Shown: positions 11,780-36,795 of the stretch, piece after piece
How the letters are laid out: each line of letters starts with the position of its first letter
Numbering within the stretch: the stretch's first letter is position 1
Origin: a virus
Direction: 5' to 3' (one strand)
Length of the DNA: 64,000 nt
Virus record (IMG/VR): IMGVR_UViG_3300020192_000009
Coordinates: 1-64,000 of that record
Notes under the pieces: model-generated
What the model was told of the DNA's origin: nothing
The model's database searches: none
The model's input: the letters and a program-made list of their open reading frames with translations, nothing else
Position numbers and translations under genes: made by a program

Positions 11780-12037
11780 TTAGCGCATTGGTACGGGAAT
11801 GTGCTCTTTACGGTGCAACACGACCCAAAGGCCGCCCGCCACAGCCCAAAATGCAATGGTTCCTGCGACAATTCCAATCGTTTTGGAAGTTGTTGGGTGT
11901 TCCGCCTTCGCCAGCTTGCGGGCTAAATACCCGGCGCCAATGCCTGTTATGTTGCCCAATGCCAATGGAACGGCAAACCGCCAAAACGTAACAGGGCAGC
12001 GTCCAGGCGAAGGGGTCATTGCGGCAGGCGTTGGCAT
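11780..12037 (-). CDS. small two-TM membrane protein
   Basis: Two hydrophobic helices; TAAGAT-N7-ATG leaderless promoter. Confidence 0.5.
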   Translation of the reverse strand: MPTPAAMTPSPGRCPVTFWRFAVPLALGNITGIGAGYLARKLAKAEHPTTSKTIGIVAGTIAFWAVAGGLWVVLHRKEHIPVPMR

Positions 12038-12236
12038 TTGTGCAATCTTAAGCGGGAATTTGACAGAAGAAAAACATCATGCACAAATAGTAATTGTGAA
12101 GGGGTTGGTGCATTGGCAACGGGGCCATTGCAATGTGACCGTACGAAACGGCGCTCTGTATGCATTTCGCTCACAAGGCATTATGCGTTTTGAGTGCCGT
12201 TTTTGCGTTTTACCGCTGTTTTCGGGGAAAACCACA

Positions 12237-12749
12237 ATGACGATTAAAAGCAATTACAACCAATGGCAATACGGCGAAGACGGCCCCGGCGGCGGATCCG
12301 TGCCTTACAATGTAATGGCCACTGGGGCGATAGCGCCGTTCTCGCCATTGAATGCGCGTCGGGACATTCAGCAATCAAGCCTACAAGCGCGTACGCGGAT
12401 TCCTGTTGGAATGCGGCCTGGCATGGCTTCACAGGGGCCCTTCCCCGCCGCAGCGGCTGCGCCTTCGGTGGCTGACGCTTCCGATATGATGAATGGCAGC
12501 CTTGGTCGTGTCCTTGGTGCGGATGCTAGTGGCCGTCCCATACGTCATTTTGCAGCTGCCGGGGCGCCTTCAGTGCCTGAAGCATCACGCGCTGTTTCGG
12601 CTTTGCGCCAAATGGCGGAAGTTCTGCGGTCCAACAATGTAACGAATCTGGCGCCCCCTCTGGTGAGTGGGCCGCTTGCGGCGCTTGCGCGGGGCGAAGC
12701 AATCGTTCTGCGCTGGCCCAACGGTGTTGCCCTAACGGCAGCGCTGTAA
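12237..12749 (+). CDS. putative virion protein
   Basis: First gene of the capsid operon; purine-rich RBS before ATG 12237. Confidence 0.5.
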   Translation: MTIKSNYNQWQYGEDGPGGGSVPYNVMATGAIAPFSPLNARRDIQQSSLQARTRIPVGMRPGMASQGPFPAAAAAPSVADASDMMNGSLGRVLGADASGRPIRHFAAAGAPSVPEASRAVSALRQMAEVLRSNNVTNLAPPLVSGPLAALARGEAIVLRWPNGVALTAAL

Positions 12750-12786
12750 CCACCAAAGGGCCTTTGGGTCACAGGGAGAATTGAAC

Positions 12787-12909
12787 ATGGCAAAGAAGAA
12801 AGCAAAGAAGGCCCGCAAGGTATGCGTGCGTCGCAAAGGCCGCGTCACTTGCGGCACGTTGGTCAAGGGTAAGAAGGCGACCAAGAAGCGCCGCAGGGCT
12901 CGCAAGTAG
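12787..12909 (+). CDS. 40-aa protamine-like basic protein (not in ORF track)
   Basis: GGAGAA RBS; MAKKKAKKARKVCVRRKGRVTCGTLVKGKKATKKRRRARK. Confidence 0.75.
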   Translation: MAKKKAKKARKVCVRRKGRVTCGTLVKGKKATKKRRRARK

Positions 12910-12965
12910 TCGCGCAAGCGGCACAACCTTTCGCACAAACCTTAAAGAAAAAACGGAGAATTCAC

Positions 12966-13559
12966 ATGGCACGTCGTCGTCGGCATCGGCTTGGTAATGA
13001 TGGTTTGGAAGGCGCTTTTAGCGATCCTTCTGTTGCAGGCCCCCTTCTGGGTGGCGGTTTGACGCAGGCAGCTTCTATGGCCACGCGGATGCTTTTCAAG
13101 AAAAAGCCATCCATGGTCAAGTGGTCGCCTGTCATTGGTTTGTTGGTTGGCGGCGGCGCTAGCGCTGCATTGCTTTTCACTCGCCACAAGCAGACCGGCT
13201 TGGCTGGTTTGATCACTTCGGCTCTCATTGCAATTCCAGCCCAGCTGGAAAGCGCTTTGAATATGCCTGCGCGGACCGCAGGGTATTTGGGCGTTATCAC
13301 ACCTGAACAAGAGATGGCTGGCGCCTTCGGTTACGAAGACGGCGGTTACTCAGATGACGGGATGAACGACGCGTTTGGCGCTGACATGTCGCAAGACATT
13401 CAGTTGCTTGACGGTGGTTCGGGTTCCACTGGCGTGTTGGGCGTTGTTACGCCTGAGCGTGAGATGGACGGAATGAGCGGCGCGTTTGGCGCTGGTGGTT
13501 TCGGCGCGAACAACGACGTTGAGTTGCTTGGTTTCGGCAGCAACTTCTTGTCGCAATAA
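12966..13559 (+). CDS. membrane/scaffold-like virion protein
   Basis: GGAGAA RBS; basic N-terminus, hydrophobic helices, acidic Gly-rich tail with repeated FG/LG; directly upstream of the MCP candidate. Confidence 0.6.
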   Translation: MARRRRHRLGNDGLEGAFSDPSVAGPLLGGGLTQAASMATRMLFKKKPSMVKWSPVIGLLVGGGASAALLFTRHKQTGLAGLITSALIAIPAQLESALNMPARTAGYLGVITPEQEMAGAFGYEDGGYSDDGMNDAFGADMSQDIQLLDGGSGSTGVLGVVTPEREMDGMSGAFGAGGFGANNDVELLGFGSNFLSQ

Positions 13560-13580
13560 ACAGCAAGTGTTCTGAGTTCC

Positions 13581-13628
13581 GGCCCGTGTGTTTGGTGCGA
13601 CAAACAGCGACACACGGGTTGTTTTTTC
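13581..13628 (+). terminator. hairpin plus U-tract in the MCP leader (terminator or attenuator)
   Basis: CCCGTGTGT...ACACACGGG stem then TTGTTTTTT. Confidence 0.5.
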
Positions 13629-13695
13629 CATACTGTTAAGGCCTGGTACCAGGACCATACCGGCGACGCCGACCCTGGATGAAAGCAAAGTAAAA

Positions 13696-14454
13696 ATGTC
13701 TCGTGGAACACTGACCGTTCGAGTTCGTGGCGTGCCCTTTCCAATCGAGTTCGCTGACTGGACCCATGATCGCCTTTACCACACGGTAGAGCTTCAAGGC
13801 CTGGACAGCACCGAAATTCGCGCCTTCGTGGGCGGTGTTGGTTCTGCCATTCCTGGCGGATCCCGCACCTTGACTGAAGTTGACACCAACATTCCTCGTT
13901 CCGGTGACACCGGTCTGCAGGACGGTTGGGAAATGCTGATCTACAGCATTCAGGTCGGCATCACCCGCGAGACGATTACCACCACTGGTAACGCTGTTTC
14001 GTTGCAGGACACCGCAGGCACGGCAGTTTCGCGACCTGCTCACGTTGGTGGTTACGATCCAGCGTACACCGCTGGTGGCGTCATGTTCGACTTCCTTCGC
14101 AAGACCTTCCACCGCTTCGCAGTGAACCAAAAGGTTCAGAGCGAAGGACCTGTGGAAGAGTACCCACAGGGATCGGGCATTTCGGTGTTCGGTACCACGA
14201 CCAGCTTGGAAGTTGCCAACAACGGCAACCCTTCGCCTCGTGACCAAAGCGCTTTCGTGTTGCCAATTTGGCTGCGCCCAAACATCGCGTACACCTCGGT
14301 GCTGAAGCCCGCTGCCGCTCTCGGCTTGCAAGGTTCTCCTGGCGCTGGTTTCCTTCAGGGCTACACCAACTGGTCTGGCTTTGCTGATACCGGTTCGAGC
14401 ACGTTCGACGTGCGCGTGACGCTTGAAGGCTTGCTGAAACGCCCAGTCGTATAA
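13696..14454 (+). CDS. candidate major capsid protein (single jelly-roll type, large)
   Basis: 252 aa, beta-rich; C-ending codon bias suggesting high expression; strong terminator follows; no HK97 context. Fold is inferred. Confidence 0.6.
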   Translation: MSRGTLTVRVRGVPFPIEFADWTHDRLYHTVELQGLDSTEIRAFVGGVGSAIPGGSRTLTEVDTNIPRSGDTGLQDGWEMLIYSIQVGITRETITTTGNAVSLQDTAGTAVSRPAHVGGYDPAYTAGGVMFDFLRKTFHRFAVNQKVQSEGPVEEYPQGSGISVFGTTTSLEVANNGNPSPRDQSAFVLPIWLRPNIAYTSVLKPAAALGLQGSPGAGFLQGYTNWSGFADTGSSTFDVRVTLEGLLKRPVV

Positions 14455-14470
14455 CGTTTCACCTCCAAAG

Positions 14471-15166
14471 TTAAACGCTTAAAAGGGTCGCTGCGGAAAC
14501 GTAGCGACCCTTTATTTTTTGTGTGTTGGCAACTTTGAACAAGCGCAACAAAGGTTGTGATTTCAAAACGTGCAAGACGCCTACTGTAAGCCTGTTTTCT
14601 ACGTATTGCCGGTCACGTGAGATCCCTAGGTTTGTAAGCGCGACGGCGATTGCCTCTATCATAGCGGGCGCTGCGCTAGCCAAATTCCAGCCTGTTGCGG
14701 TGTCTGTTTGGGAGCCTTTGGCGCGATACAGGTCCAACAGCCATTCAAGCCCTTCGCCGCCGTAGCGATTGAGTGTGAAAGGCTCTTCGTGCCTTGACCA
14801 TAGCGTCAGCGTAGGCGCATCTGCGGTTACCAAATAGGCTTGGGAATCCGCAAAGCGTAACCAATCAAAAGGCGCATCGCTTGCGGTTGCTCGATACGGT
14901 ACGGTGTCTTCCACACGGGCTGTGATTGCGCTGCCAGGGCCTAGGGCAGGAAACGCCCACGACGGCAATGTGCATGTCACAGAAGGGCGCGACAATGGGT
15001 AACGCGCAATTACAAAGATCGGCGCAAAGCCCGCAATGGATAAACGCACCCAATCAGGCGGCGTAAAGCCCGTGGCCCGCAATTGCGCGACAATGGCCGC
15101 GGGGATTGTGATGCGTAAATTGCCTTTACTGCCTTCGGCGCGAACAATTGTTGAAAATGGCGTCAT
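14471..15166 (-). CDS. hypothetical DNA-binding protein; AbrB-like N-terminus, possible degenerate LAGLIDADG C-terminus
   Basis: GSKGNLRITIP; WLLDLYRAKGS. Confidence 0.35.
   Translation of the reverse strand: MTPFSTIVRAEGSKGNLRITIPAAIVAQLRATGFTPPDWVRLSIAGFAPIFVIARYPLSRPSVTCTLPSWAFPALGPGSAITARVEDTVPYRATASDAPFDWLRFADSQAYLVTADAPTLTLWSRHEEPFTLNRYGGEGLEWLLDLYRAKGSQTDTATGWNLASAAPAMIEAIAVALTNLGISRDRQYVENRLTVGVLHVLKSQPLLRLFKVANTQKIKGRYVSAATLLSV
14482..14520 (+). terminator. rho-independent terminator (possibly bidirectional)
   Basis: AAAGGGTCGCTGCG-GAAA-CGTAGCGACCCTTT followed by ATTTTTT. Confidence 0.85.
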
Positions 15167-15236
15167 TGTTTAAGTAGACCTTCTTGCGCCCCATTGCCAA
15201 TAGGCGCAATGCTGAAAAGCGAGGTTTCACAAAAAA

Positions 15237-15761
15237 ATGCCCACCGCTGACGAACTTGCCGCAATGGCCCGTAACAATGCTGGCACCAATGCCATGCTAA
15301 TGCAGATCGCCCCAATCATTGCTAAGACATTGGCGCGGATTCAACCCCTGTTGGACCAGCCGATCATTCGGATGCCGTACAACTTCCCATTGGCCAACAC
15401 CGCGACGCTTTCTGCGGGGCAAACGGGCGTGCCATTGGCCGAAACGGATTTCTTGAACGCTCTCGAATGGCCGTTCGAGATTCACAAGATCAAGTTTTCT
15501 CAGGATGCATCGCACACGGCACGCGATTGGCGTGTGACGATTCAAGACCAGACGTTCAATCAGAACTTCATGAAGAATTCGACACTTGTTGCCGATTTGA
15601 TCGACAACAACACGGGTTCTTGGGATATCAGCAATTACCCCTGGATTGCGCGACCAAAGGGCGGCGGCATCAAGGTAACCGCTGACAATTTGGACACTAG
15701 CAACCCAATTCAAGTTGACATCAACTTCATTGGGTACCTGATGATTCCACGTTCCCGCTAA
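15237..15761 (+). CDS. candidate second (small) single jelly-roll capsid protein
   Basis: 174 aa of alternating beta strands ending in INFIGYL; GAGG RBS; high-expression codon usage. Confidence 0.55.
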   Translation: MPTADELAAMARNNAGTNAMLMQIAPIIAKTLARIQPLLDQPIIRMPYNFPLANTATLSAGQTGVPLAETDFLNALEWPFEIHKIKFSQDASHTARDWRVTIQDQTFNQNFMKNSTLVADLIDNNTGSWDISNYPWIARPKGGGIKVTADNLDTSNPIQVDINFIGYLMIPRSR

Positions 15762-15791
15762 AAAACCGTACGTTTCGTGTAAACTGGCACA

Positions 15792-16253
15792 ATGCGAACG
15801 ATGGAAGACATACTTGGCGGATCTGGATCCTTCGATGGGCCCAGCGCAGGCATTGCCCTTGCAGCATTGTCGTCGTCTGGGGTTTCAGGGCAAGTCAATT
15901 CAGAGCCGCTAGGTAGCCTTACCGGGGCACCTCCATGGGCCCGCCTTGAGCGTATTCAAGTGATCCCCTACACCGCTGTTGGTACCGCCGGGCGGCAAGC
16001 AACTGTACTTGCCCCTGCGCAGCGCCAAAACCGTGTGATTGTTTGCACAGCGCCAGCTGTCGGGTTTGCGGTTTACGTCGGAGATTCCGGCGTGCGTCCG
16101 GGGTTTGCGTTCCAGCTGCCACCAGGATTAGCGTATGACGTGATTATTCCTGGCGGTCAGATTTTGTACGCGGTAACCGATGCGCCAAGTTATTTGCCAG
16201 TGCAAGTCCAAAACGCAGCGTTGCTAATGGGCGGCACAGAGCGTCGTGCCTAA
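15792..16253 (+). CDS. putative minor capsid or penton-like protein
   Basis: Beta-rich C-terminal ~100 aa; leaderless promoter. Confidence 0.4.
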   Translation: MRTMEDILGGSGSFDGPSAGIALAALSSSGVSGQVNSEPLGSLTGAPPWARLERIQVIPYTAVGTAGRQATVLAPAQRQNRVIVCTAPAVGFAVYVGDSGVRPGFAFQLPPGLAYDVIIPGGQILYAVTDAPSYLPVQVQNAALLMGGTERRA

Positions 16254-16887
16254 ACGCAAAGGCAAGCGGCGCATTGCCGCGTGGCTGCGCCGCTTACCGC
16301 CTTGGGTTGCACCTGCAGGGCTTAGCGTATTAGCGTTGGGCGCTTTCGTAGCAGCTTTGGCCAGCACCAATACTAGGGTGCGGCGTCCAGGGGAAATCAC
16401 CCCTGCAATTTATAGCTTAGCTTTGAAATGGGCACAGGCGCGCGGATTACCGGCGTCTTGGGTGCTAGCGACAATTTTGGCAGAATCTAGTGGGAGTACA
16501 CAGGCTGAAGGTGATTGCACGAAAGATGGCGTACGGTTGTCCGAGTGCCGTTCAGTTGGCTTAATGCAAGTCAACTGGGCGGTGCACGGACCGCGGTTGC
16601 AACAATTAGGCATCGCAGCGTCTCGGGATGCGCTTTTTAGCCCTGCAGCCAATATCGAAGCTGGAACGCTCTTTTTGCGCGAGGCATACAACGCCGTGAA
16701 GAGCGCTTTGGCCGTTCGCGCATCTTCAGTGCCTCTGGATATGCTCGTTCGTTACGCTTACACAGGGCCTGCCCTTGCAGTCTCGGCTATCAAACGGGGC
16801 GTTGATCCCGCAGATGTTTACAAAAACAGCGATGCGCTTATGGCCACATGGAACCGTGCATTGACACGTGCTCAGGGCTTGGCTTAA
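16246..16887 (+). CDS. membrane-anchored lytic transglycosylase (SLT-like)
   Basis: TM helix; ILAESSG catalytic Glu, GLMQVN, NIEAG. Confidence 0.85.
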   Translation: MPKRKGKRRIAAWLRRLPPWVAPAGLSVLALGAFVAALASTNTRVRRPGEITPAIYSLALKWAQARGLPASWVLATILAESSGSTQAEGDCTKDGVRLSECRSVGLMQVNWAVHGPRLQQLGIAASRDALFSPAANIEAGTLFLREAYNAVKSALAVRASSVPLDMLVRYAYTGPALAVSAIKRGVDPADVYKNSDALMATWNRALTRAQGLA

Positions 16888-16931
16888 ACGTCGAACTTTC
16901 AGCCCGGCTTTGATTGTGCCAATATAGGGCA

Positions 16932-17411
16932 ATGCTGAGCCGTACTTACACTGTTCTGATGCCTTCGGACGCAGGGACTTACCCCACGGTCGATATTCCT
17001 GTCGAAAACTTCAACCCCACGGCAGCTGTGGCTCCTGTGGTTGTCGGTGTAGACGGGTTCTACTCGGAATGGCGCAACTTGCCGATTCGAGTGCCTGTTA
17101 AGGCAGGTGCTGCCGCAACGCCTGCAGCTGGCTTCGTACCGCGCTTTAGGCTTGGTTACAGTTTGGCAGTTTCTCAAGTTGGTGGCATCGGGGCAGCTAA
17201 TTTGTTAGCTGTGCGCCTTTCACGGTCGCTTGTTGGCAACGTGATTTCAAACGCTGCGGGCACGACAACGCCGGGTGACGGGACCTTCCAAGACCCTTCG
17301 GGTGCGCCCACGATTCGGTTATTGAACACGGCAGCCGTGCAAGGCTTGACCTTCCGTGTGAGTTTGCTGGTTCCCACACAAATTGAAGATGCGCGTAACG
17401 GAGTGGGCTAA
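16932..17411 (+). CDS. putative virion protein
   Basis: Beta-rich; CAATAT-N6-ATG. Confidence 0.45.
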   Translation: MLSRTYTVLMPSDAGTYPTVDIPVENFNPTAAVAPVVVGVDGFYSEWRNLPIRVPVKAGAAATPAAGFVPRFRLGYSLAVSQVGGIGAANLLAVRLSRSLVGNVISNAAGTTTPGDGTFQDPSGAPTIRLLNTAAVQGLTFRVSLLVPTQIEDARNGVG

Positions 17412-17896
17412 TGCAAACGAACAGTGGTTTCGGGTATCTCGGTTATGGCGCACGCGTGTATCAAGAGCCCGAAAACGATCCTTCTGCAGAAAGCGGACCT
17501 GTTCGCAGGGCATCAGGCGCGCTCGTACGTATTACCGATCCACCACGCATGGTCTACAGGTCGCCACATGCCGTTGTGCCCGATGCTGAAAGCGGCGCGG
17601 TTTACAACAATCCTCCCGTGTGGCAAGACAAGTTTTTGCCTGATGGCCGACTTGTCTCAATGCACGGGGTAGAACTGACAGAAGAGGCTGAAAGCGCTGC
17701 TCAAAGTTTGGCGATATTCGCTACGCTTGGGTTTACTGTGTTTGGCGTCATAATCGGCGCAGGAACCGGCAAGAGTAATGAAAACCTCTGGAAACGCGCA
17801 GGCGTTGCAGGCTTACTCGGTGCAGGCGCAGGACTCTTGGTTACCGGCGTCGCAGGCCGTACAGCAAAACTCGCGACAATCTTGCGCAAAACATAG
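17411..17896 (+). CDS. membrane protein
   Basis: Two C-terminal hydrophobic helices; N-terminal GFGYLGYG. Confidence 0.55.
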   Translation: MQTNSGFGYLGYGARVYQEPENDPSAESGPVRRASGALVRITDPPRMVYRSPHAVVPDAESGAVYNNPPVWQDKFLPDGRLVSMHGVELTEEAESAAQSLAIFATLGFTVFGVIIGAGTGKSNENLWKRAGVAGLLGAGAGLLVTGVAGRTAKLATILRKT

Positions 17897-17908
17897 GCGG
17901 CACTTTCC

Positions 17909-19003
17909 ATGGCAACCAAATCCTCTACAACTATCGACGTTGTGACAGCCGCACAGTTCTTGCAAAAGCGTTACGCTGATTTGCAAATTCTGGCAGCAAA
18001 GCTTGTCGAAAGTGTCAATACCACTAAGCGGCCTTTGCCCTGCAAAGTTATCAGTAACTACAACCAGGCTGTCAAAGAGTACTTGAGTGCGGGCAAGCAA
18101 GTTTTCGATCAATTGGCAGCAAAGGGCATCGTTGTAGATCAAATTGTCTACCGTGATGGCAAGCCCGCGCAAGCGCCTGACGATGCTTCTAAAATCTTGG
18201 TGCAAACGCTTGTCAGCCCTTTACGCCCAGCGATCTTCGTTCCAGGACCTGAATGTCCTGCTGCTGTGCGTTTTGCAGGTCAAGACGAAGCGCCTTTAGG
18301 CATAGCACCTTTGGTTGTCGGAGTTATCGAAGCTAGCCTTGCTGCCGGGCGCGCTATTGGGCCTTGGTTAATGCGCACAGGTGGCGCAGCGGTCTTGCTG
18401 TATTTCACTGGTGAAGCTGTTAAAGCGACGGTGGGCCCTTTGACAATCGTTCGCGATACGGTTGTTGGCTACGATCCTGCCGCGTTGCCTACCGCGTACA
18501 CAAAGTGCATTGAAGTTGCAATCGCTGCAGGGATCTCTCCTGAAAAAGCGGGTAATGATTGCAATGCTAAAACCGCAGGCAATGCCCTTGGTATTTTTGG
18601 TTGGATTGGTTTAGGCGTTGTGACGTTGGGCGCTGGCGCGGGTTTGTATTGGTGGTTTAAGCGGCGCGGTGGCGGGGGTGGCGGCATGATTGACGACGCT
18701 GACGCTGACGCTGACGATGACGCTGACGCTGACGATGACGCCGACGAGGAATATATCGCGCCGCGTAAAAAGCAAAAACGCCTTGGGCGCGCTGCGCCGC
18801 AAGCTGCTGCAACTGACGAAGACGAAGATGTTGCCAACGACGTTGCCTCTGCTGTTGCCGATGCAACGCCACCAAAAGCCAAGCGTAAGCGCAAAGGCAG
18901 TGTGGCCGCAGAGGATTACACAGTGCCCGGCGGAGAATTGTCGATGTCCGATTTTGGGGACGTTGCCGCTTCTGATACGCTAGACGAATGTCCTACGATC
19001 TAA
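17909..19003 (+). CDS. membrane protein with acidic DA-repeat and basic tail
   Basis: TM helix then YWWFKRR; (GACGCT)n-encoded acidic run. Confidence 0.6.
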   Translation: MATKSSTTIDVVTAAQFLQKRYADLQILAAKLVESVNTTKRPLPCKVISNYNQAVKEYLSAGKQVFDQLAAKGIVVDQIVYRDGKPAQAPDDASKILVQTLVSPLRPAIFVPGPECPAAVRFAGQDEAPLGIAPLVVGVIEASLAAGRAIGPWLMRTGGAAVLLYFTGEAVKATVGPLTIVRDTVVGYDPAALPTAYTKCIEVAIAAGISPEKAGNDCNAKTAGNALGIFGWIGLGVVTLGAGAGLYWWFKRRGGGGGGMIDDADADADDDADADDDADEEYIAPRKKQKRLGRAAPQAAATDEDEDVANDVASAVADATPPKAKRKRKGSVAAEDYTVPGGELSMSDFGDVAASDTLDECPTI

Positions 19004-32813: not shown

Positions 32814-33206
32814 TCAAACAGCGATGAAAGGCTTCAAGAAGGCCGCCAGGCCAGCACGCGACAGCGCGCCTTCGCTACGCGCAAGCTGTTTGCCATTCTT
32901 GTACAGCAACAAAGTAGGGATCGCCTGTACGTTGCACTTTGCAACTTGCTTTTCGCCATCGTCGAGATTGTATTTAAGACAAGCAATCGCGGCATAGGGT
33001 GGCGTTGCTAGCAACGCGTCTAGAACTTTGCCCATGCTTTTGCAGGGCGCGCACCATGGGGCCCAAAAGTCTACAAGGATGAGCGCGCCCGTAGGTGCGC
33101 CTGTCACTTGGGCTTTCCAAGTTTTGTCGGTAACAACGTTTTCAGCGTCGTGCGCTGTTGGTGCGAGTTTAGTGCTCGCGGCTTTTGCTTTAGGTTTGGT
33201 GGGCAT
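32814..33206 (-). CDS. trxA: thioredoxin
   Basis: VDFWAPWCAPCK, IPT. Confidence 0.9.
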   Translation of the reverse strand: MPTKPKAKAASTKLAPTAHDAENVVTDKTWKAQVTGAPTGALILVDFWAPWCAPCKSMGKVLDALLATPPYAAIACLKYNLDDGEKQVAKCNVQAIPTLLLYKNGKQLARSEGALSRAGLAAFLKPFIAV

Positions 33207-33231
33207 TGCTTGAACTCGTAACTTTTATAAT

Positions 33232-33823
33232 GTTGCAATTTTGAAAGGCATTGCACAGCCTTTATCGCGAAATCGCAAGCGGCGTTCGCCAAGCCGATGC
33301 ACGGGTTGCAATTTTGAAAGGCATTGCACAGCCTTTGTCACAAGAAGGAGGGCCAAGAGAATCGAGTTGCAATTTTGAAAGGCATTGCACAGCCTTTGGC
33401 ACGCACAGGCCGTACGTCTTTCACACTATTTTCGTCTCGTTGCAATTTTGAAAGGCATTGCACAGCCTTTGTCACAACGCTAGGGCTGCAGCTGCGTACG
33501 CGTGCGCGAAATCGTAAAACCCAGTGAACCACGGGGCGCTGCTGTATTGCCCGAAGTCTGTCATGAAAGTGTCGCTGCCGATACAGTGTATAACATGACA
33601 ACTGTTGTGGATCCGCAAAAAGAAACGAAATAGCTCGGCTTGTGGTGCTGCTGTTGTGAGGAAAAACACACGTTGTGGTGGTAGCTGAAACAGTCGGTAG
33701 ATCGCTACGTCTGCAAGTGCATTCATGGCAGCATCCGTGTTGCAATTTTGTAAGGCATTGCACAGCCTTTGTCACAAATATACCGACGCCGAACTCGTAA
33801 CTTTTTCAATGTTGCAATTTTGA
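33232..33823 (-). CRISPR. CRISPR-like array A (5 full repeats + 1 partial), no cas genes
   Basis: Repeats at 33232, 33305, 33366, 33439, 33739 and a partial at 33811-33823; intervals 36, 24, 36, 263 and 35 nt. Confidence 0.85.
33472..33726 (-). CDS. 84-aa ORF filling the interval between two repeats
   Basis: ATG 12 nt after one repeat; TGA stop supplied by the next repeat. Confidence 0.45.
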   Translation of the reverse strand: MNALADVAIYRLFQLPPQRVFFLTTAAPQAELFRFFLRIHNSCHVIHCIGSDTFMTDFGQYSSAPWFTGFYDFAHAYAAAALAL

Positions 33824-33969
33824 GCTTGCAACTCAAGCGGCGCGCGGTCTTCTTGCAATGCCACAAATACAGCTGTAACGCCGCAAGCTTCAAACGCTGC
33901 AACGATTTCACAAGCTAACTTGTAATGCGCTTTGTCGGCTTGCGGCCAATACGTGATTGCAACATGCAT
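33772..33969 (-). CDS. 65-aa ORF running into array A
   Basis: Starts 3 nt after the oxygenase stop; ends at the TGA within the repeat. Confidence 0.4.
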   Translation of the reverse strand: MHVAITYWPQADKAHYKLACEIVAAFEACGVTAVFVALQEDRAPLELQAQNCNIEKVTSSASVYL

Positions 33970-33972
33970 GCA

Positions 33973-34605
33973 TTACGCTTTTTTACGTTTTGCGTTTACA
34001 GGCTCGGGCGCAGGCGCTGCCGTGGGCACGGGCTCGGGCGCAGCAAAGCGCTTCATGTCGAAAAAGAACATCCAGAATAACCGTGCATTGGTTGGGTGAT
34101 GCCCAAAGTATGACGATGCTGCATGAATGAGCGCCCCATCCCAAATCACCAATCGATTGTAGACATTGCCGATCTTGTCTACCAATTCCCATTTGCTCGG
34201 GTCTAGCAAGTTGTTGTCGAACGTAGCGCTTGCCAGTGTTGGATTCAAAGGCGCGCGTCGTGCACCTGTGATCTTGCTGCGGTAAAGCGAAAGGCCCGCT
34301 TCCACAGGTGCATTGGGCGTTAGGTAAAGCGTTGCTGCATGCGTCTGCAAATCCGCGTGATAGACAATGGGGTCAAGCGGCGTGCAAATTTGAAAGCGGC
34401 CATTCATGCCGTGGCGATCCCAATCATCAACTTGCAGGCCTAGGGCGTCTTCCATCACCTGAGGATCAACCATGTGATGGAAACGCGCGGCGCTACGCAA
34501 ACCCTTGTGGTAGTCGCTTGGCCCAAATTCTTGCGAAAGCGCAAGCGCTCGCACGGCATCGGGATCGGGCAAGAAATCGTCAATAACGGTGATAACCCTA
34601 GGCAT
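33973..34605 (-). CDS. 2OG-Fe(II) oxygenase (DUF6445-like)
   Basis: VIDDF.PDPD.VR, HAD, YNRLVIWD, HAA, RL. Confidence 0.8.
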   Translation of the reverse strand: MPRVITVIDDFLPDPDAVRALALSQEFGPSDYHKGLRSAARFHHMVDPQVMEDALGLQVDDWDRHGMNGRFQICTPLDPIVYHADLQTHAATLYLTPNAPVEAGLSLYRSKITGARRAPLNPTLASATFDNNLLDPSKWELVDKIGNVYNRLVIWDGALIHAASSYFGHHPTNARLFWMFFFDMKRFAAPEPVPTAAPAPEPVNAKRKKA

Positions 34606-34767
34606 GCCGCGCAGCTTGCCAGCGTTTTGTACAGGAGGCAACGCTTTTGCTAAGCTTACACCCGTACGGTGTCTCGAAGGCCGGTAGCGCACTTAGGCAA
34701 ACCGTACATTGAGCGGACTCAGCCAAGGGTAGTGCCTTGGCGTGCTGGTCCGCTTTCTTATTTGTAG

Positions 34768-35478
34768 CTACAGCATCGCAAGATTGAGCTTGCGGCGTCT
34801 TTTACGAGAACGCGCCCCTTTGAGAACTGGCCGGTCTGCGACGTAATCCACGTTGTAACCAAGGTCGAGAATCTTCCACTTGCCTTTGGCGTTGCGCCCT
34901 AGGTTGGCGGCATGCCAGTCGAAGAACAACAGCTTACGTTCGCGAAACGCATCGCTTGTCTGTTGCACCATGGCCATTAGGCTGAGACAAGAAGACACCG
35001 TGTCAGCAACGGGTATGCGCGCAGCTGTCTTCAATGCGCGTACAATTTGCATATCACAACATTGCGCATGTACTTTTACAGCCGGGGTTCTACGGGCGCA
35101 TTTCAAACCGTCAGAAAGTGTTTCTGAAGCGGCTGTAGGTGTTAGCTTTTCGACGCGCATCGCCCAACGCTCGTCATTGCCTGCAATTTGCAGGGCACTA
35201 TACAGTGTCACAACACCGGGGATCCCCTGTGCGCCCATTGTGGTGTGCACGTCACCAGGATCGGTAGTCAACTTAATGACTTTGCCAGCCTCATCAGACT
35301 CGTAAACACAGGCATAACTGCCGCAACCGTAACGCTTGGGCTTTGTCATGCGCCGCCCGAACAACTTGACCCACTGGGTGTCTGTCAAGCAAGTTAGGCT
35401 GTACGAGGCTCCCGTGCGTAAGCAGCGGCGGCCAGCGTCATCAATGGTTACGGTGTAGTTTCGCGTGGGAGCGCTCAT
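34768..35478 (-). CDS. small protein-kinase-like protein (paralog of the 28579-30750 N-domain)
   Basis: GCGSYA, VIKLT, DWHAAN, WKILDLG; basic tail. Confidence 0.75.
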   Translation of the reverse strand: MSAPTRNYTVTIDDAGRRCLRTGASYSLTCLTDTQWVKLFGRRMTKPKRYGCGSYACVYESDEAGKVIKLTTDPGDVHTTMGAQGIPGVVTLYSALQIAGNDERWAMRVEKLTPTAASETLSDGLKCARRTPAVKVHAQCCDMQIVRALKTAARIPVADTVSSCLSLMAMVQQTSDAFRERKLLFFDWHAANLGRNAKGKWKILDLGYNVDYVADRPVLKGARSRKRRRKLNLAML

Positions 35479-35503
35479 CAGTAAACCAGTGTACGCCCAC
35501 GTC

Positions 35504-35767
35504 TTAGGGCTTGTCGAACACGCCTGCCATGCGTGATCTGAATTGCTTGTTGGCTTCCGCCCAGCCCGCGGCCCGGCCTTCGTAGTAGCCCGCATCAAAG
35601 TCTAGGGGAATCGCGCAGGCGATTCGTAGATGATTGCGCAGCCATTCGGTTAACGCGGCTTTACCGCCGCAACGCTCATGGGCCTGGGCAAGCAATTCGT
35701 TGGGCACCCGTAACGCTATCGGTGTGGAATCCCGAACATTGTACAAACCGCCTTTAGGTCGCGCCAT
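35504..35767 (-). CDS. ribbon-helix-helix-like regulator
   Basis: IALRVPNELL...LTEWLRNHL; divergent from the recombinase. Confidence 0.55.
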   Translation of the reverse strand: MARPKGGLYNVRDSTPIALRVPNELLAQAHERCGGKAALTEWLRNHLRIACAIPLDFDAGYYEGRAAGWAEANKQFRSRMAGVFDKP

Positions 35768-35990: not shown

Positions 35991-36707
35991 GTGGCGCATA
36001 AAGATGTCGATTCCGAAGCGGTCTATACCGTGCAAGAGATCCAACAGGTTTTGCGTACGGCACGCACTATAGGCACGCTTGCTTTCACATTGACAGCATG
36101 GTGCTACGAATTTGGCGCACGCACCGCAGAGCCGGGCCAACAGTTGTTGCGTGACGTGGACTTGCCGAACAATCGCGCACGGCCTACGCACCTCAAAGGT
36201 GGTGCTAGCAAGGCCTGGCAGTTCCTGATGCCCAATTGCCAAGCAGCCTTACCCCTGTGGCTTGCAGAACGCGAAACGCATATCAGCCAACCCACCCAAG
36301 CGCTTTATCTGTTTCCGGCACGCAAGCCAGGCAAGTGCCTTACTTGTGAAGGGACCGGCCAACGCGCAAAGCAAATGCGCGATGGTGAACGGCGCTTCAA
36401 GGGCCCACGTGTGCCTTGCCATCATTGCGCGGCTACGGGCAAACGATGGGGCATGGACCGCCGCGAAGTGTACGCAATCGTTGCGCCCGTGTTACGCGCA
36501 GCGGGTATGCCAAAGGGCCGCCAGCATCCACACGTTCTGCGCCACAGTGTGATCACACATATGCTTGACGCAGGCGTGGCTCCCAAAGTAATTCAAGAAC
36601 GTGTAGGGCATCGCAGTCTGCAAACGACACTCGACTATGTGAAAGCGACCGATGCGGGTCGTGCTGAAGTCATGGGCAAAATGAATGCCCTATTCGCAAA
36701 GCAATAA
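35991..36707 (+). CDS. tyrosine recombinase (catalytic domain only) with CxxC...CxxC insert
   Basis: GARTAE (R), LKGG (K), HPHVLRH (HxxR), VGH, TLDY (Y); CLTCEGTG and CHHCAATG. Confidence 0.9.
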   Translation: MAHKDVDSEAVYTVQEIQQVLRTARTIGTLAFTLTAWCYEFGARTAEPGQQLLRDVDLPNNRARPTHLKGGASKAWQFLMPNCQAALPLWLAERETHISQPTQALYLFPARKPGKCLTCEGTGQRAKQMRDGERRFKGPRVPCHHCAATGKRWGMDRREVYAIVAPVLRAAGMPKGRQHPHVLRHSVITHMLDAGVAPKVIQERVGHRSLQTTLDYVKATDAGRAEVMGKMNALFAKQ

Positions 36708-36730
36708 CAACAACAACAACAACAACAACA
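36706..36730 (+). repeat. (AAC)n microsatellite, about 8 units
   Basis: Directly after the recombinase stop, in the array leader. Confidence 0.9.
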
Positions 36731-36795
36731 AAAGCCAGAAAGTGAAAGTGCCTCCGACCAAGACTTTGGTGTACCAACGACTAAAGCGACAATTT

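Follow-up and report, generated by a model that had tools for sequence, protein, structure and literature searches.

Cas-less arrays of CRISPR-type repeats have been described in several viruses. Cyanophage N-1 carries five 37-bp repeats with spacers of 29-37 bp and an AT-rich leader, and this array is transcribed although no Cas proteins accompany it (PMC4916379); archaeal viruses carry Cas-less mini-arrays (PMC6858448). Racr, by comparison, are solitary repeat units that match the CRISPR repeat of the host (PMC10651486). The PeSL of T4-type phages are of another kind, consisting of a strong promoter and a terminator that flank whole small genes (PMC2839356, PMC4122927). The phage analysed here has five arrays of its own, and we conclude that one of them has very probably overwritten the middle of an adjacent gene. 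According to this conclusion, an open reading frame (ORF) of 84 aa that seemed to sit between two repeats like a gene cassette, and a 65-aa ORF upstream of it, are the two ends of a single 172-codon gene, and the arrays themselves are Cas-less and recombining.

The phage is represented by a 98,503-bp (98.5-kb) IMG/VR virus, record IMGVR_UViG_3300020192_000009, with a CheckV completeness of 88%; the window, by which we mean the whole stretch of DNA analysed, is its initial 64 kb. Sequence runs that contain the phage sequence are chiefly microbial-mat metagenomes. The record bears the phage hallmarks of a collagen-like tail fibre, DNA methyltransferases and thymidylate synthase, together with genes for RadC, thioredoxin, DNA polymerase A and an SNF2 helicase. 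It has 0 copies of the HIP1 motif GCGATCGC, for which ~2 would be expected.

The 37-nt repeat reads GTGAC AAAGGCTGTGCAATGCCTT(T/A)CAAAATTGCAAC, and ~50 copies of 36-37 nt are spread over the five arrays of the whole record; its 15 matches in the window, as against 0 in 100 shuffles, are far beyond chance. Array A (33.2-33.8 kb, minus strand) has five copies. Array B (36796-37550, plus strand, the opposite orientation to array A) has 11 repeats and a degenerate 12th, with spacers of 15-38 nt; array C (~64 kb, minus strand) has three, and there is also a solitary copy at 66.3 kb; array D (87.0-87.65 kb, plus strand) has 11, and array E (92.1-93.2 kb, minus strand) has 19. As in CRISPR arrays, where repeats measure about 23-50 nt, these are near-identical tandem direct repeats, with spacers that are unique save for a few duplicates. 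The spacers do not follow the narrow length distribution of CRISPR arrays, being 4-39 nt long with a mode of 36-39 nt and about half of them shorter than 30 nt. Among the ~45 inter-repeat intervals of the record, just one, in array A, falls outside this range, at 263 nt. In several runs, loose contig ends (window 33566, 36787 and 36824-36932) join repeats to flanks that are absent from the 98.5-kb record, one example being a repeat followed by AACAGGGAGATTCTAAAATGCGA; the ~12% of the genome that the record lacks, or the genomes of sister strains, probably hold additional arrays.

The long interval is bounded by two full copies of the 37-nt repeat (33775-33739 and 33475-33439, both on the minus strand). 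As the original prediction from the letters alone had described, its 263 nt hold an 84-aa ORF that starts 12 nt past the repeat, with its ATG at 33726, and that stops on the TGA (33474-33472) of the next repeat's GTGAC; the upstream 65-aa ORF (33969-33772) also ends on a repeat TGA (33774-33772). The prediction had taken the 84-aa ORF to be whole and likened it to a promoterless integron cassette, and neither idea survives, since in alignments the two ORFs match the two parts of a gene that is unbroken elsewhere, and the 84-aa ORF is just codons 89-172 of 172. Such an alignment had been named at the outset as the finding that would speak against a cassette; we looked for it and found it. The alternative offered at the same time, an ancestral gene split by invading repeats, is the one borne out, because two intact proteins span both ORFs in one frame.

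These two proteins, an intact allele from the same population (P0002) and a distant intact homolog (P0012), were compared with the window as protein sequences. P0002 is a 187-aa protein from a 977-nt ENA contig and falls in the 90% cluster of the 84-aa ORF. It comprises, in order, residues 1-50 of the 65-aa ORF (49/50 identical), 38 residues (PFDLLLAITPAALTREIQGRAVWQYVNIAYAVWFTDAA) and the entire 84-aa ORF, which is 100% identical to its residues 89-172. Beyond the gene, it reads through a repeat and then into ...ACGAGACGAAA, the first spacer as in the window; the read-through IATRRK encodes the window's first array A spacer (GAGACGAAA...). P0002 is therefore the same locus with the gene unbroken, and the array already lay behind the intact gene. 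When phmmer was run exhaustively against 1.84 billion representatives, it yielded three proteins in total. P0012 (169 aa, 67% identical, E 1e-69) was aligned by phmmer over residues 1-166 and covers both halves: its residues 1-50 align with the initial 50 aa of the 65-aa ORF, and it is 60% identical to the 84-aa ORF. Because P0002 and P0012 span both ORFs, the intact state is ancestral and the allele in the window is the disrupted one. Between P0002 and P0012, conservation is highest in the middle stretch, which is absent from the window, and tblastn of P0002 against the record gave a single collinear match (33969-33430) and no further copy of the absent segment.

The 172-codon gene belongs to a very rare family. 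Among 5.8 billion proteins the 84-aa ORF has no relatives beyond its own 90% cluster; Pfam and PHROG hold no family for either ORF, and Pfam and NCBIfam none for the intact product. IMG/VR scans with the repeat, the 84-aa ORF, P0012 and, as a single sequence, the recombinase discussed below gave no matches within a scope that may not take in near-identical records. AlphaFold2 gives the intact homolog an alternating strand-helix pattern, with a mean pLDDT of only 41, too low for any conclusion.

The anatomy of the insert, confirmed nucleotide by nucleotide, can be followed along the minus strand. Codons 1-50 of the gene (33820-33969) make up the first 50 aa of the 65-aa ORF and run into a partial repeat, its final 13 nt TCAAAATTGCAAC (33811-33823), which by our reading of the sequence forms the left junction. 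The first 4 nt of this partial repeat, TCAA, double as codons 49-50 of the gene and are thus a microhomology at the junction; past this point the native protein reads QAQ-PFD in both P0002 and P0012. A 35-nt spacer-like insert follows (33776-33810). Its first 20 nt, ATTGAAAAAGTTACGAGTTC, duplicate the array A trailer, ATTATAAAAGTTACGAGTTC at 33231-33212, and these are the sole two copies in the 98.5-kb record. After the complete 37-nt repeat (33739-33775), whose GTGAC gives the TGA that closes the 65-aa ORF, the gene resumes with 12 nt, ACGGATGCTGCC (33727-33738). These are codons 85-88 of the intact gene (T-D-A-A), in frame with the ATG of the 84-aa ORF, and across this region P0002 reads ...VWFTDAAMNALAD... 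The 84-aa ORF itself (33472-33726) extends from Met89, a conserved internal Met, to Leu172. In all, 102 nt (the conserved codons 51-84) are out and 81 nt of array are in.

Downstream of the gene lies the remainder of array A (33232-33475, minus strand), with four repeats and spacers of 36, 24 and 36 nt, then the trailer (33207-33231, minus strand) and the thioredoxin gene (32814-33206). The upstream neighbour encodes a DUF6445-family protein (PHROG 1644; 33973-34692, minus strand), which served as the anchor for retrieving relatives of the locus. In the freshwater run X12, a contig is missing 718 nt (window 34787-35504) and has 130 different letters instead; the gap takes in most of a 276-aa ORF (34768-35598), and the difference looks like a strain-specific gene replacement.

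Each feature that suggested a cassette has its source in this arrangement. The GTGAC of the inserted repeat is in frame and so yields the TGA that closes the front fragment. The conserved internal Met lies just past the insert, and consequently an ORF opens 12 nt after the repeat; the natural end of the gene abuts the first array A repeat, so that the GTGAC there gives the second TGA. There is nothing remarkable in a repeat TGA closing both ORFs, because GTGAC starts about half of the repeats and gives a stop in one of three frames; outside GTGAC, the repeat sequence is stop-free in all sense frames. The long interval is a resident neighbouring gene entered by array sequence, not foreign DNA that entered the array.

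The donor would have been an array segment made up of the last 9-13 nt of a repeat, the 35-nt spacer-like piece and one complete 37-nt repeat. We infer that the replacement came about through illegitimate or microhomology-assisted recombination, or through gene conversion, rather than by site-specific insertion of a cassette. The simplest route would be recombination at the 37-nt repeats combined with at least one illegitimate join, for which TCAA would provide the microhomology. The C-terminal fragment is probably non-functional and heading for deletion through recombination at the repeats.

Sister strains show that the arrays change by whole units. A 57-kb metagenome contig (L011) carries the identical split gene; because it and the window are identical across the gene, no pseudogene decay is visible yet. 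In array A of this contig (L011:6218-6306), the second spacer has been swapped for a copy of array B's first spacer, while array B keeps its own. In L012, the units of array B are reordered and two spacers are new (L012:57-420). In P0005 and P0004, proteins from two further sister contigs (108 kb and 7.8 kb), the N-terminal fragment is retained and the reading frame continues across several repeats; the C-terminal fragment is absent from the called ORFs. These differences imply that strains trade, rearrange and lose repeat-spacer units, and the likely agent is repeat recombination among the five Cas-less CRISPR-type arrays. The comparison of related genomes at this slot, which had been suggested as a check for cassettes, does find the unit in some strains without seeing it in others, but its presence or absence reflects unit turnover rather than the movement of a cassette. 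Sequence collections contain both alleles, and the broken one comes from mat and freshwater metagenomes. In four DNA runs the Logan contigs break at the repeats, and no allele bridges the slot, so that the alleles are neither joined nor excluded by these data; the loose ends of the contigs map mostly to flanks of other arrays.

The apparent cassette is, in other words, the wreck of a gene, and it would be a mistake to cite it in favour of an integron-like system in phages. The broken gene does show that the arrays recombine actively enough to have replaced a portion of an adjacent gene, and the pair of intact and broken alleles provides a natural marker for tracking array dynamics.

Three other explanations of the locus were weighed. 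The first is that units are copied to new places by some Cas-independent mechanism, for example by the zinc-ribbon tyrosine recombinase described below or an unrecognised protein, and that the gene was hit by one of them. If this were true, unit copying would be active, the arrays growing, swapping units and invading coding sequence, and the split gene would be an insertion caught in the act. Units do move between arrays, as the first spacer of array B in array A of L011 demonstrates; array sequence now lies inside a gene, and five arrays occur within 98.5 kb. We nevertheless regard this mechanism as unlikely. The insertion shows no target-site duplication, goes together with the 102-nt deletion and has a truncated repeat at its left end, a combination that looks like the scars of recombination rather than transposition. 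Moreover, homologous recombination at the 37-nt repeats accounts for unit exchange without a special enzyme, and no transposase, Cas1 or TnpB was detected among the families listed for the ORFs of the record or with a TnpB profile.

A second explanation, which we consider very improbable, is that the repeats are regulatory modules that act as promoters, terminators or RNA-processing sites, in the manner of T4-type PeSL, and that the two ORFs are separate small genes brought together by modular shuffling. Each of the five arrays is indeed co-directed with its flanking genes, and the repeat-mediated shuffling between strains resembles the behaviour of PeSL (PMC2839356). A consensus scan of the repeats, however, found neither a sigma-70-like promoter nor a terminator, with counts not above those of shuffles, which makes a PeSL-like role less likely. 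The repeat can form a single 6-bp stem, a weak hairpin of -7.3 kcal/mol (z -0.5), and its runs of 11-19 copies, 4-39 nt apart, flank no genes. The two ORFs, for their part, miss 34 conserved residues of the parent protein.

The third explanation is an integron-like system, and it centres on the tyrosine recombinase encoded between arrays A and B (35991-36707, plus strand), a 238-aa protein with a Cys4 zinc-ribbon insert and a Pfam Phage_integrase match of 9.5e-17. An (AAC)n run (window 36700-36734) straddles its stop and the start of the 88-nt stretch ahead of array B. The protein belongs to a family of zinc-ribbon recombinases of ~235-250 aa found on phage-sized contigs. It falls far under every NCBIfam cut-off (TIGR02249, 40.5 bits with a cut-off of 265; NF011946, 24.7 with a cut-off of 435), and the integron-integrase models match its catalytic C-terminal part only. 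In the IMG/VR relatives G001-G003, no arrays adjoin the recombinase homologs (42-65% identical), and a tie between recombinase and arrays is rejected for now on this ground. The attC sites of integrons are imperfect inverted repeats of 57-141 bp, conserved in structure and not in sequence. In such a system, this recombinase would move the 84-aa ORF, as a mobile cassette without a promoter, between repeat sites. In its favour, the recombinase gene sits between the two arrays with array B beginning 88 nt past its stop, the ORF is flanked by repeats and its unit is seen in some strains and not in others. The explanation is nevertheless hardly credible, because the ORF is the 3' part of a gene and lies in line with the matching 5' part, in the original place and order, the left junction falls within a partial repeat rather than a full site, the remaining ~44 intervals of 4-39 nt hold no ORFs, near-identical 37-nt repeats with only a 6-bp hairpin are unlike attC, the recombinase reaches just those 40.5 bits of the 265 required of an integron integrase, and its homologs in G001-G003 have no neighbouring arrays.

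With the gene explained as one overwritten by array sequence, the arrays themselves, Cas-less and with ~50 repeats and irregular spacers, become the more interesting object. Candidate explanations are decaying CRISPR arrays, decoys for host CRISPR systems, or something else; we judge the chances about even that they are Cas-less arrays of CRISPR type, decaying or repurposed, for instance as decoys (PMC10651486). A CRISPR-type origin is favoured by repeats that are 36-37 nt long and spacers whose modal length is 36-39 nt, by the degenerate terminal repeats of arrays B and C and the AT-rich leader and terminator of array D, and by a repeat 3' end close to that of cyanobacterial repeats and a family-level relative, G002, described below. 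It is disfavoured by the fact that about half of the spacers are only 4-30 nt long, by the lack of any Cas family, TnpB-profile match or homolog of the G002 effector, and by the lack of a protospacer, host array or Rfam match. No Cas family occurs among the families listed for the 121-125 ORFs of the record (25 of 32 for PADLOC and 25 of 38 for Pfam, so that weak matches are possible, in a record that is 88% complete), and a TnpB/Cas12 profile search of the record gave no match. Protospacers were found neither in the phage's own genome nor in G001-G003, INPHARED or IMG/VR (one 22-mer), collections in which mat viruses are poorly covered. A search by exact repeat pattern, with one genome per GTDB species, found no host array and 37 unrelated single matches; a search of 401 cyanobacterial genomes that allowed up to 3 mismatches did not find the repeat either. 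Rfam had nothing at gathering thresholds and just noise at E up to 10.

An orphan 451-aa ORF on the plus strand (record 85468-86823; L010:5468-6823) lies 183 nt upstream of array D in the same orientation. It has no Pfam, PADLOC, NCBIfam, Atlas or TnpB-profile match and no homolog in G001-G003; the idea that it is TnpB-like is unsupported by any family or TnpB-profile match, though not disproved.

Relatives of the phage offer a further point of reference. A syntenic block of ~8 genes (window 12000-18000) has 32-69% aa identity with G001-G003 and, being common to them, indicates a family-level group of ~100-kb phages. One of these, G002 (IMGVR_UViG_3300050821_013777, 121.5 kb), has ~30 genes in common with the window's phage, including a recombinase 56% identical. 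At ~116.1-118.4 kb (L144:16101-18448) it carries a 602-aa ORF and, directly behind it, a single regular array in which eight 36-nt repeats alternate with spacers of 36-40 nt; the 3' end of the ORF overlaps the first repeat. This ORF matches HTH_OrfB_IS605, OrfB_IS605 and Cas12f1-like TNB in Pfam, TnpB in NCBIfam, and Cas12u4 (E 1e-60) and Cas12f (E 1e-56) in PADLOC. Judged by these sequence matches, G002 seems to carry, on a phage genome, a miniature type V locus of Cas12f/V-U4-like type. No homolog of its effector was found in our record or on contigs of sister-strain size.

The locus can be set beside several known systems. Like integrons, with their IntI, attI and attC, it has a tyrosine recombinase gene beside a repeat array and an ORF between repeats, but the recombinase does not resemble IntI, nor do the repeats resemble attC, and the ORF is only part of a gene. 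In integrons a cassette comprises a complete ORF followed by a site of its own, whereas here the ORF is partial and the other intervals measure 4-39 nt. With PeSL it has in common short conserved phage repeats that drive insertion, deletion and replacement among close relatives; the repeats here, however, show neither promoter nor terminator signal and mostly flank nothing. Racr are similar in being CRISPR-repeat-like units in a phage without cas genes, and a decoy role would fit spacers that are short or missing, but the units here stand in long arrays rather than alone, and no match to a host repeat was found in the genomes searched. The likeness to virus-borne Cas-less arrays (PMC4916379) extends to the 37-nt repeat, the modal spacer of 36-39 nt, the absence of phage cas genes and the unmatched spacers. 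The 37-nt cyanobacterial repeats described in the same study (PMC4916379) end in ATTGAAAC, close to the ATTGCAAC at the end of the phage repeat. Cas-less viral arrays differ from ours in that here there are ~50 repeats in five arrays, half of the spacers are 4-30 nt long and a piece of array lies inside a gene; a further difference is that no host array with the phage's repeat was found. Finally, the putative type V locus of G002 has a regular array and an effector, whereas the window's phage has irregular arrays and no detectable homolog of that effector; nevertheless, the two belong to the same phage group, their repeats and spacers are alike in size, and the repeats of both start with GTGAC and end in GC(C/A)AC.
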